Positions 2,271 to 2,959 of a DNA stretch of 24,000 nt are shown piece by piece. The notes beneath the pieces are model-generated. The model was not told the DNA's origin and did no database searches. It saw nothing but the letters and a program-made list of their open reading frames with translations. Source of the DNA: Candidatus Heimdallarchaeota archaeon (GTDB lineage: Archaea > Asgardarchaeota > Heimdallarchaeia > Heimdallarchaeales > Heimdallarchaeaceae); the NCBI GenBank assembly GCA_023705945.1, contig BPTM01000182.1:1-24000 (forward strand). Direction: 5' to 3'. How positions within the stretch are numbered: the first letter of the stretch is position 1; the number at the start of each line of letters is the position of its first letter. Both the position numbers and the translations under genes were made by a program.

Positions 2271-2339
2271 TTATGGCCACCAAGCTGGCGGTAAAATTCC
2301 TTCGTCTCCTTCATCAGGGTCATATGTTGGTTTTTTCAT
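2271..2339 (-). CDS. 22-aa acidic micropeptide, paralogue 1: MKKPTYDPDEGDEGILPPAWWP
   Basis: Hand translation of the minus strand: ATG 2339..2337, TAA at 2273..2271. One of three tandem copies, all exactly 22 codons long. The 14-mer GTTATACTTAGAAG (+ strand, 2358-2371) lies 19-32 nt upstream of the ATG and acts as a TATA-like box on the minus strand. A T-rich tract (TTTTTATTTTTTCC on the minus strand) follows the stop. Confidence 0.6.
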   Translation of the reverse strand: MKKPTYDPDEGDEGILPPAWWP

Positions 2340-2357
2340 TGTAGCATCTACTCATTT

Positions 2358-2371
2358 GTTATACTTAGAAG
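2358..2371 (-). promoter_or_regulatory. TATA-like box of micropeptide gene 1 (minus strand CTTCTAAGTATAAC)
   Basis: The identical 14-mer recurs at the same distance from the ATG of paralogue 2 (2585-2598). A related AT-rich box, TTTCTATAATAAC, recurs at 2788-2800 for paralogue 3. Confidence 0.4.
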
Positions 2372-2496
2372 TGCTAGAAAATACTATAAGACACCAAGAA
2401 AGAAACTGTCAGAACTATGGATTTACTAGAAATAATCTCAACGAAAGGAAAAAAGGAAAGGATAATTAACCAGGAGACCACAATGGAGGAAGAATA

Positions 2497-2565
2497 TTAA
2501 TTTGGTGTCCACACAGGTGGTAATATATCTTCGTCTCCTTCGTCAGGATCATATTTACTTTTCAT
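2497..2565 (-). CDS. 22-aa acidic micropeptide, paralogue 2: MKSKYDPDEGDEDILPPVWTPN
   Basis: Minus strand ATG 2565..2563, TAA 2499..2497. Promoter-like 14-mer at 2585-2598. A T-rich tract (CTTTCCTTTTTTCCTTTC on the minus strand, ~2441-2460) lies downstream. Confidence 0.6.
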   Translation of the reverse strand: MKSKYDPDEGDEDILPPVWTPN

Positions 2566-2700
2566 TTTTGCATCACTCTTTTACGTTATACTTAGAAGAG
2601 CAAAAACATACTAAAAAACAACAAGAAAGAAACTGACAATAAGGCTGTTTTACTAGTAAATATATCAATAAAACAGGTATTTTCAAAAGAAGGTAGCCAT

Positions 2701-2769
2701 TTAAGACCGCCAAAGTGGAGGTAGAATAGAATCATCCCCGTCTTCCGGGTCGTATTTTTGCTTCATCAT
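2701..2769 (-). CDS. 22-aa acidic micropeptide, paralogue 3: MMKQKYDPEDGDDSILPPLWRS
   Basis: Minus strand ATG 2769..2767, TAA 2703..2701. TATA-like box at 2788-2800. Compared with paralogues 1 and 2, most nucleotide differences in the core fall on third codon positions and keep the residue or its charge. Confidence 0.55.
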   Translation of the reverse strand: MMKQKYDPEDGDDSILPPLWRS

Positions 2770-2959
2770 TGTTCATCACTTGTTTATGTTATTATAGAAA
2801 TGACTTGTAACTTTTAAAACCCATAAAAAGAGAAATGCCAGTTTCTAACCTATGTCTTCCATTTTTCATAGAAGTAACAATTTTGCTGTGCTTTTATAGT
2901 TCGAAGTAGTACAACTTTTGTATAAAATCAGACTTCTATCACCCCTAAGAGGAGAGTTC

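Follow-up and report, generated by a model that had tools for sequence, protein, structure and literature searches.

The 24,000-nucleotide (nt) stretch analysed here, called the window throughout, corresponds to positions 1 to 24,000 of contig BPTM01000182.1 from the Candidatus Heimdallarchaeota archaeon assembly GCA_023705945.1. Between a gene coding for a tetratricopeptide repeat (TPR) protein and a gene coding for a HerA/FtsK-superfamily ATPase lies an intergenic gap of about 724 nt (2193 to 2918), which holds an array of very short genes on the minus strand. Three ATG-started open reading frames (ORFs) of 22 codons were located there, with ATG-to-ATG spacings of 226 and 204 nt between copies 1, 2 and 3 (Table 1). 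They had been pointed out in an earlier sequence-only reading of this DNA, and the ORF list, the quoted peptides and the codon differences all agree with that description. The degenerate pattern [YF]-D-P-x-x-G-D-x-x-φ-L-P-P-x-W matched the window three times, at these three ORFs, with 0.00 matches expected from 100 shuffles. The repeated unit is larger than the ORF, with direct-repeat families of 67 nt and 89 nt (66-75% identity, spacings of 201-229 nt) spanning the ORFs and their upstream regions. Copy 1 is the nearest to the TPR gene and is presumed to be the cognate copy; its peptide falls in the class 'DE..ILPPAW', which tracks the TPR clade that holds the window TPR protein. Orthologues of copy 2 ('DEDILPP[AV]WTPN') were found in loci L013, L015 and L024, and in copy 3, the distal copy closest to the HerA-like gene, the nearly invariant final proline is replaced by serine. 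A fourth motif copy, also counted in the earlier reading, is present only in part: it consists of a 3' remnant in another frame than copy 2, directly after the copy 2 stop codon, with neither a start codon nor the N-terminal half of the motif, and is probably a recombination scar.

We investigated the distribution of the peptides by one run of a degenerate motif scan over 185,579 species-representative genomes, which gave 41 matching stretches in 20 assemblies for an estimated chance expectation below 1. The assembly titles were 17 Heimdallarchaeota and one Thorarchaeota, the others being general (one 'Promethearchaeati archaeon' and two 'uncultured archaeon'). All the exact-pattern matches in other genomes (52/52) were short ORFs. 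A looser protein-level scan of those loci and of the window led to 89 copies, including ITPP, IMPP and IGPP variants, and a metagenome scan provided 45 further copies with the same architecture, together with 4 chance matches inside high-G+C ORFs. The family thus comprises well over 100 copies of 18-26 amino acids (aa) in at least 20 species-level genomes, with the consensus M(M)xxx-[YF]-D-P-[DE]-[DE]-G-D-[DEG]-x-[IL]-[LT]-P-P-x-W-x-P-(N/G). It is restricted to Heimdall-type Asgard archaea and expanded to many paralogous modules per genome. Viral contigs contained 0 motif matches, on which ground a viral or mobile origin of the family was rejected.

A database of 5.8 billion proteins was then searched with doubled peptides and with the family profile. 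The profile gave nine matches only, of 24-47 aa, seven of which plainly belong to the family; the other two, the weakest (E = 0.2 and 4), are degenerate and devoid of the LPP-x-W-x-P end. No protein of this database carried the motif embedded in a larger sequence, so that the peptide is neither a mimic of, nor a relic from, the tail of another protein. The likeness proposed earlier to acidic docking tails (the SSB C-terminal DDDIPF, the ribosomal stalk P1/P2) therefore extends to an acidic run followed by a short hydrophobic or aromatic motif and no further: those motifs are C-terminal tails of larger proteins with many partners, whereas the present one is a free micropeptide with one partner family. 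In the window, the stalk protein P1 (7583-7900) is unremarkable, with a Ribosomal_60s domain. The peptides had no match in NCBIfam, Pfam or PDB, and in the literature neither the family, nor an archaeal peptide-TPR cassette, nor an Asgard or Heimdall micropeptide of this kind was found described. The sequence-only reading was therefore right that the motif belongs to no described family, and the homologous short ORFs that it called for in other genomes exist in the 20 Asgard assemblies.

The coding status was examined over the 89 copies. An ATG was present 1-13 codons (mode 4-6) before the Tyr codon in 86 of them, and a stop codon 17 or 18 codons past it, also in 86/89. In the anchored alignment the information content showed a strict 3-nt period, with positions 1 and 2 near maximal and the third near zero, except at the Tyr codon and the invariant Asp codons, whose third positions are restricted to C/T. 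The ratio of nonsynonymous to synonymous polymorphism (pN/pS) was 0.29 in the sense frame and 0.40 in the antisense frame whose wobble positions coincide with it. This coincidence had been noted as a caveat from the start, and it agrees with the plus-strand ORFs, which lie antisense to copy 1 (70 aa) and to copy 2 (2502-2636, TTG start), none being found over copy 3. A non-coding origin of the pattern, whether as a regulatory DNA repeat, an antisense gene or a small structured RNA, could draw on an antisense frame that is open in 87/89 copies and under apparent purifying selection, and on the gene callers, which annotate the 70-aa antisense ORF in assembly GCA_023705965.1 (contig BPTN01000004.1, 99.9% identical to the window) and in three Logan assemblies, the peptide genes being unannotated there. 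However, neither the start nor the stop of the antisense ORFs is conserved, and their length varies (median 36 codons, up to 117), in contrast with the fixed sense ATG and stop positions. The C/T limit at the Tyr and Asp codons settles the strand, since these third positions correspond, on the antisense strand, to the fourfold-degenerate base of TCN-Ser codons and would be unconstrained. The antisense-gene reading was rejected for these reasons, and the original preference for the minus strand was justified. The 70-aa antisense ORF had no Pfam match, its boundaries are not conserved over the family copies, and it is probably a spurious gene call.

No conserved RNA structure was detected by RNAalifold on 44 diverse units (-0.23 kcal/mol, 2 invariant pairs, no covariation), and Rfam had no match at the array, the only one in the window being a tRNA elsewhere; the structured-RNA reading was rejected accordingly. 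We give a non-coding nature of the array next to no credence, and we are highly confident that the three minus-strand ORFs are genuine peptide genes with a functional tie to the TPR family.

The family-wide alignment showed that about 75 nt upstream of the ATG are conserved across genomes, with in order a TGTCA element, the pyrimidine tract TTTCTTTCTTG, the box G(G)TGTTTTA[AG]TA(G) at about -50, the element CT.ATTA.(A)GTAAC at about -30 to -20 and GAGTGA(T) just before the ATG. Counted over 83 genes and compared with random positions, a TGTCA-like pentamer at -77 to -68 was present in 88% of the copies versus 14% of the background, GTGA at -11 to -7 in 60% versus 3.5%, and a T5 run within 60 nt past the stop codon in 70 of the 83 copies (84%) versus 19%. 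These signals fit the earlier proposal that each copy forms a separate mini transcription unit. The leaderless transcripts proposed with it are doubtful, as the best-conserved TATA-like box lies about 50 nt upstream of the ATG and the GTGA(T) element is frequent at a short distance from it. In the window, leaderless genes have a TTTA[TA]A[TA]A box about 27-35 nt before the ATG, often after GGTG, and operon-internal genes use GGTGA or GTGATC as Shine-Dalgarno sequence. By comparison, the -50 box (TTTTA[AG]TA) of the peptide genes would be the TATA box and GTGA(T) the Shine-Dalgarno sequence in a leader of 20-25 nt. Whether leaderless or leadered, each copy has the features of a self-contained small gene, and the three window ORFs are previously unannotated micropeptide genes, each of which would be transcribed and translated on its own. 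Spacings of only 11 nt separate a few copies (L024), which would be bicistronic. The upstream region of copy 3, which is distinct (TGGCA..GGGTTTTAAAAG), is common to the HerA-proximal copies of L015 and L028. In some copies (L006 2211-2409, L027 3385-3586, L029 5616-5814), the last codons TGG AGA CC (W-R-P) pair with GGTCTCC shortly past the stop codon, giving a short hairpin before the T-rich tract.

The TPR gene is the constant neighbour of the peptide genes. For 79 of the 89 peptides, a TPR homologue starts within 700 nt downstream on the same strand, and most of the exceptions lie at locus ends. A typical module consists of 1-3 peptide genes followed by the gene of about 525 codons, and such modules are themselves in tandem in L015, L019, L024 and L042. 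Clustering of 186 neighbouring ORFs showed no other conserved neighbour, the TPR family alone being common to the modules. We found also a second TPR subfamily (558-572 aa, about 20% identical over the N-terminal half and devoid of the conserved C-terminus described below), which is accompanied by divergent 'DPEPGD..PPxW' peptides: MMFDPEPGDDYIIPPAWTP, MYDPEPGDEDTLPPHWFP, MMYDPEPGDDEFIPPLWHP, MYDPEPFDDESIPPAWFP and MNMMRYYDPTDDDDFLPPEWYP. Several of these type-2 loci (L054, L080, L081) have the peptide gene convergent with the TPR gene or downstream of it, and the 900 nt preceding the second-subfamily TPR gene of L066 yielded no peptide. The peptide family is the small half of a two-gene module whose large half is an all-TPR superhelix of about 525 aa, encoded immediately downstream. 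The sequence-only reading had raised the question whether matches elsewhere would again be short and tandem and adjoin TPR or HerA-like genes; the first two features were found and the TPR neighbour is essentially universal, a HerA-like neighbour being limited to one syntenic locus.

The position of the peptide gene immediately upstream of the TPR gene, on the same strand in type-1 modules, could suggest a cis-acting leader or arrest peptide, in which the PP-x-W-x-P-stop end stalls ribosomes and controls the TPR gene. Peptide-bond formation and termination are known to be slower at Pro-Pro and at a terminal Pro, as in TnaC- and SecM-type arrest peptides, with a dependence on EF-P/aIF5A. The conserved length of about 17 residues equals an exit-tunnel-length segment, and TnaC, SecM, MifM and the fungal arginine attenuator peptide share with the present peptides a size of about 20-25 aa, a conserved stretch of that length, a terminal Pro, a Pro-Pro motif and a place upstream of another gene. 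Unlike these, every tandem copy has its own promoter-like upstream element and, in 84% of the cases, an oligo-T, terminator-like tract before the TPR gene. A conserved TATA box, placed as for a leaderless transcript, belongs to the TPR gene itself; in the window it is as far from the ATG as is typical of the leaderless genes there, and TPR genes of other loci are also preceded by the conserved element ctagTTTATAAATcaatttgcGGATTA. A short ORF within the 5' leader of the same transcript is apparently not what these modules contain. The convergent or downstream peptide genes of type-2 modules are incompatible with a leader ORF, and a linkage that survives sequence divergence and rearrangement points to a trans-acting product. 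Control in cis is therefore very unlikely. In a subset of the TPR genes (L010, L011, L019 4294-4399, L027, L029, L038, L043), a tandem direct repeat AACTGCAAT-N3-AACTGCAAT was observed just before the TATA box, in the intergenic stretch that separates the peptide gene from the TPR gene, and may be a regulator binding site; the remaining TPR genes have a ctagTTTATAAAT..GGATTA element in its place.

The TPR protein of the window was compared with its homologues, of which 57 adjoin peptides in the loci and 169 were found in the 5.8-billion-protein database. Where named, their sources are Heimdall-type or unclassified Asgard metagenome-assembled genomes (one labelled Thorarchaeota), and the proteins are called 'hypothetical' or 'TPR repeat protein'. 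The window protein itself had no Pfam match, but TPR_12 was recognised in 21 and TPR_MalT in 15 of 66 family members. An AlphaFold2 model built on a 66-sequence alignment is a 28-helix all-alpha solenoid, with a mean local confidence (pLDDT) of 90 and a predicted template-modelling score (pTM) of 0.87. Foldseek against PDB gave generic TPR superhelices, the best TM-score being 0.55 (APC5); the other matches included CNOT10 and several peptide-binding solenoids, such as TSK/BRU1 with the H3.1 tail, the APPBP2 degron receptor, LGN/Pins, RapI and MalT domain III. A PDB profile search with the receptor returned only designed or IFIT TPR repeats with weak E-values. The last ~70 residues are nearly invariant (RIEVLELRIFMEAFIQVGAYKNGDPLGPALQYMAIKKCRxYGFSRLENKLLDYL), whereas the N-terminal two thirds are variable; the most conserved segment, 451-510, contains conserved Lys and Arg. 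The TPR family is mildly basic, with a median isoelectric point (pI) of 8.45. The peptides have a pI of about 4.1, a grand average of hydropathy (GRAVY) of about -1.2 and a net charge of -2 to -4, with no hydrophobic or signal-like segment seen in them. A defence-system reading of the TPR protein was rejected, PADLOC giving no match. In GCA_023705965.1 the TPR gene (L001 1691-3275, window 607-2190) is called as two pieces of 383 aa and 159 aa; a single indel separates this contig from the window over 17.6 kb, and is either an assembly frameshift or a strain-specific pseudogene.

In type-1 modules, the divergence of the proximal peptide core followed that of the TPR protein (Mantel r=0.70, n=41, p=2e-4). 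No such correlation was seen for the peptides at the far end of these arrays (r=0.04, n=17), the proximal value for those 17 receptors being 0.78. The two main TPR clades have distinct proximal peptide classes, 'DE..ILPP[A/M]W', which includes window copy 1, and 'ED..I[T/G/M]PPLW'. These comparisons show proximal peptide and TPR gene to be the unit of inheritance; contact is not thereby proven. In L015, the HerA-like neighbour is 86% identical to that of the window, but different modules stand behind similar distal peptides, and this comparison and the window remnant together point to turnover of the repeated units through unequal recombination between them.

We infer from these data, with moderate confidence, that the product is a cognate intracellular micropeptide that is bound by the TPR receptor and modulates it. 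The acidic and hydrophilic peptide would stay in the cytoplasm, where the groove on the concave face of the cognate TPR solenoid would hold it in an extended conformation, as in LGN-NuMA, TSK-H3 and the RRNPP receptors. The nearly invariant basic C-terminal repeats are a candidate binding site, and the peptide might be a ligand or a subunit that controls the action of the TPR protein. The peptide gene nearest to the TPR gene would encode the cognate ligand, and window copies 2 and 3 and the remnant would be products of unequal recombination. Several points weigh against this model. Simple co-duplication would also make the proximal peptide and the TPR protein diverge together, without any physical contact. 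The peptide core hardly varies while two thirds of the TPR protein are variable, unlike classic specificity co-evolution. Strict one-to-one pairing leaves several peptides per receptor and orphan-looking copies unexplained. Finally, the TPR protein has no recognisable output domain (no helix-turn-helix, enzyme or phosphatase). No natural peptide-receptor fusion was seen among the 120 homologues listed.

The near invariance of the core, in paralogues paired with TPR proteins that share only 26-65% identity with that of the window, would also fit a common, conserved target. The peptide might then act independently, for instance as an acidic binder of metals or cations or as the ligand of some other conserved cellular machine, and be no more than co-regulated and co-inherited with the TPR gene. 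The DPDEGD segment loosely recalls cation-binding loops of the DxDxDG type, and a TGTCA-like upstream element is present in both the peptide and the TPR promoters. We consider this unlikely. The TPR linkage is essentially obligate and survives a second subfamily and changes of orientation, no other neighbour is conserved, and TPR solenoids are peptide binders by design.

Groove binding by the TPR protein has parallels in LGN/Pins-NuMA/Inscuteable, TSK/BRU1-H3.1 tail, APPBP2-RxxGP degron, PEX5-PTS1 and Hop/CHIP-EEVD. These proteins are of the same fold class and are among the best structural matches, and their ligands are short (5-30 residues), often acidic and unstructured, to which the 17-residue conserved core is comparable. 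Their ligands, however, are parts or tails of larger proteins, whereas here the presumed ligand is a free-standing gene product, and with a best TM-score of 0.55 (APC5) no specific family membership can be claimed.

The module resembles most the RRNPP systems of Bacillota and their phages (Rap-Phr, NprR-NprX, PlcR-PapR, PrgX, Rgg-SHP, ComR-XIP, AimR-AimP). RRNPP pairs are characterised by a propeptide of 10-100 aa that is secreted (by a Sec signal, or as an SHP-type hydrophobic peptide exported by PptAB) and by a directly adjacent gene coding for a receptor of 250-500 aa with peptide-binding TPRs (PMC10075063). The present peptides fall in this size range, and the predicted all-alpha solenoid, the Foldseek TPR matches and the Pfam domains of family members point to a TPR receptor. 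The two genes are adjacent in type-1 and in type-2 modules. As in RRNPP systems, a very small and often unannotated peptide gene stands beside the gene of a cytoplasmic all-TPR receptor, with many paralogous pairs per genome and tandem peptide duplications. Unlike them, the peptides are strongly acidic and have no hydrophobic segment, the receptors are slightly above the range (515-535 aa in type 1, 560-572 aa in type 2), there is no sequence homology, the receptor has no helix-turn-helix or phosphatase output, the host is archaeal (Asgard), the peptide gene is usually upstream of the receptor gene, and export, processing and import components were not identified. The cassette might work most like an RRNPP pair, yet we do not file it as a member because of the unmatched secretion, the receptor size, the absence of homology and the absence of an output domain.

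By this analogy, the peptide could be an exported signal, released possibly with the help of the membrane-anchored HerA/FtsK-like ATPase that adjoins it at the ancestral locus, re-imported and sensed by the TPR protein, as an archaeal counterpart of RRNPP quorum sensing. Many paralogous pairs of a small peptide gene and an adjacent TPR receptor gene per genome, as in RRNPP (PMC10075063), the RapI and MalT TPR domains among the fold matches, and an ATPase of HerA/TrwB type with N-terminal transmembrane helices flanking the module in at least 8 genomes would support it. The ATPase adjoins the module, however, at a single syntenic locus (window, L010, L015, L028, L065, L079, L080, L081), beside the ribosomal L1-P0-P1 operon, and this may be plain synteny, which is kept down to 43% ATPase identity. 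At that locus the peptide gene is always between the ATPase and TPR genes, the orientations differing. Most modules lie away from it, and more distant ATPase homologues (37-40%; L082, L083) have no module, so the HerA-like ATPase as an obligatory third component was not supported. The composition of the peptides, the receptor without DNA-binding or phosphatase output domain and the absence of a conserved peptide importer or processing protease nearby also argue against export, which we regard as quite unlikely. In a broader form, Heimdallarchaeia would have a lineage-specific, multi-paralogue system of peptide-ligand/TPR-receptor signalling, in which acidic signals of about 20 aa, intracellular or exported by HerA/FtsK, switch TPR adaptors. 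We judge this unlikely; if true, no RRNPP-like peptide-receptor cassette would have been known before from Archaea, or from anywhere but Bacillota and their mobile elements.

Short, tandem and multicopy genes with an invariant core and conserved aromatic Tyr and Trp are also found among precursors of ribosomally synthesized and post-translationally modified peptides, and a PqqA- or streptide-like cofactor or peptide precursor modified at Tyr, Trp or Asp side chains was considered. The neighbouring ORFs included no conserved radical-SAM enzyme, cyclase, protease or transporter that could serve in maturation, the sole constant partner is a non-enzymatic TPR solenoid, and conservation covers the whole 17-residue core with no leader/core bipartition. 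A precursor role is accordingly highly improbable.

What is new here is that every peptide gene or cluster is tied to a TPR solenoid of about 525 aa, in a gene pair that was previously unnoticed and that provides a well-supported new protein family with a defined partner. Standard gene callers miss micropeptide genes of about 20 codons and, in the present case, annotate a probably spurious antisense ORF instead; the array makes a concrete case for re-annotating Asgard intergenic regions. Heimdall-type Asgard archaea are the archaeal lineage closest to eukaryotes, and to our knowledge hardly any lineage-specific regulatory systems are understood in it. Should the peptide be a dedicated ligand of the TPR protein, Archaea would be shown to have peptide-receptor pairs that are genetically encoded, and a synthetic 20-mer and a recombinant TPR protein would make a compact testable system.

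Table 1 Coordinates of the peptide array, its control regions, the TPR genes and other genes (window positions unless a locus is given).
Feature	Position	Strand	Content and basis
Micropeptide copy 1, MKKPTYDPDEGDEGILPPAWWP	2271..2339	-	ATG-started 22-aa ORF (ORF list), motif match
Micropeptide copy 2, MKSKYDPDEGDEDILPPVWTPN	2497..2565	-	ATG-started 22-aa ORF, motif match
Micropeptide copy 3, MMKQKYDPEDGDDSILPPLWRS	2701..2769	-	ATG-started 22-aa ORF, motif match
3' remnant of a fourth copy, ILPPLWSPG*	2466..2495	-	Other frame than copy 2, directly after its stop
Copy 1 upstream control region	2340..2411	-	TGACAG, pyrimidine tract TTTCTTTCTTG, TATA-like CTTATAGTAT, CTTCTAAGTATAAC, degenerate Shine-Dalgarno GAGTAGATG; direct repeat D2, family alignment
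Copy 2 upstream control region	2566..2638	-	TGTCAG, TTTCTTTCTTG, TTTTTTAGTAT, CTTCTAAGTATAAC, Shine-Dalgarno-like GAGTGATG
Copy 3 upstream control region	2770..2840	-	TGGCA, TTTCTCTTTTT, GGGTTTTAAAAG, TTTCTATAATAAC, Shine-Dalgarno-like AAGTGATG
T-rich tract after copy 1, TTTCATTTTTATTTTTTCC	2241..2270	-	Putative archaeal oligo-T terminator between peptide gene and TPR gene
Promoter of the TPR gene	2194..2240	-	TGTCAG at 2240-2235; canonical TATA box TTTATAAA about -30 from ATG
TPR solenoid protein, 527 aa, presumed receptor	607..2190	-	Homologues beside peptides, AlphaFold2 model, Foldseek, Pfam of family members
70-aa antisense ORF, called in place of copy 1	2257..2469 (L001 3342-3554)	+	Called by gene callers in L001-L004
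Second-subfamily TPR gene	L065 3680-5398	+	
Second-subfamily TPR gene	L010 4490-6172	-	
Second-subfamily TPR gene	L066 7813-9495	+	
Second-subfamily TPR gene	L080 1595-3280	+	
Second-subfamily TPR gene	L081 2018-3694	+	
HerA/FtsK-superfamily ATPase, 946 aa	2960-5800	+	2-3 N-terminal transmembrane helices, DUF87 and TrwB_AAD_bind domains
Ras/Arf-family small GTPase	8305-8901		
Faint E3_UFM1_ligase match	11681-12439		
OST3/OST6-like protein	12585-13010		
Rad51/RadA-family protein	13239-13868		
tRNA-Thr(GGT)	15186-15261		

The best NCBIfam match of the HerA-like ATPase was CedD, below the cutoff. Upstream of the distant HerA-like homologue of L082, a stretch of 3.6 kb (350-4000) contains no called gene and no N runs. 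The other window genes listed in Table 1 accompany the archaeal L1-P0-P1 operon, and the eukaryote-like gene content of the window is typical of Heimdallarchaeia.

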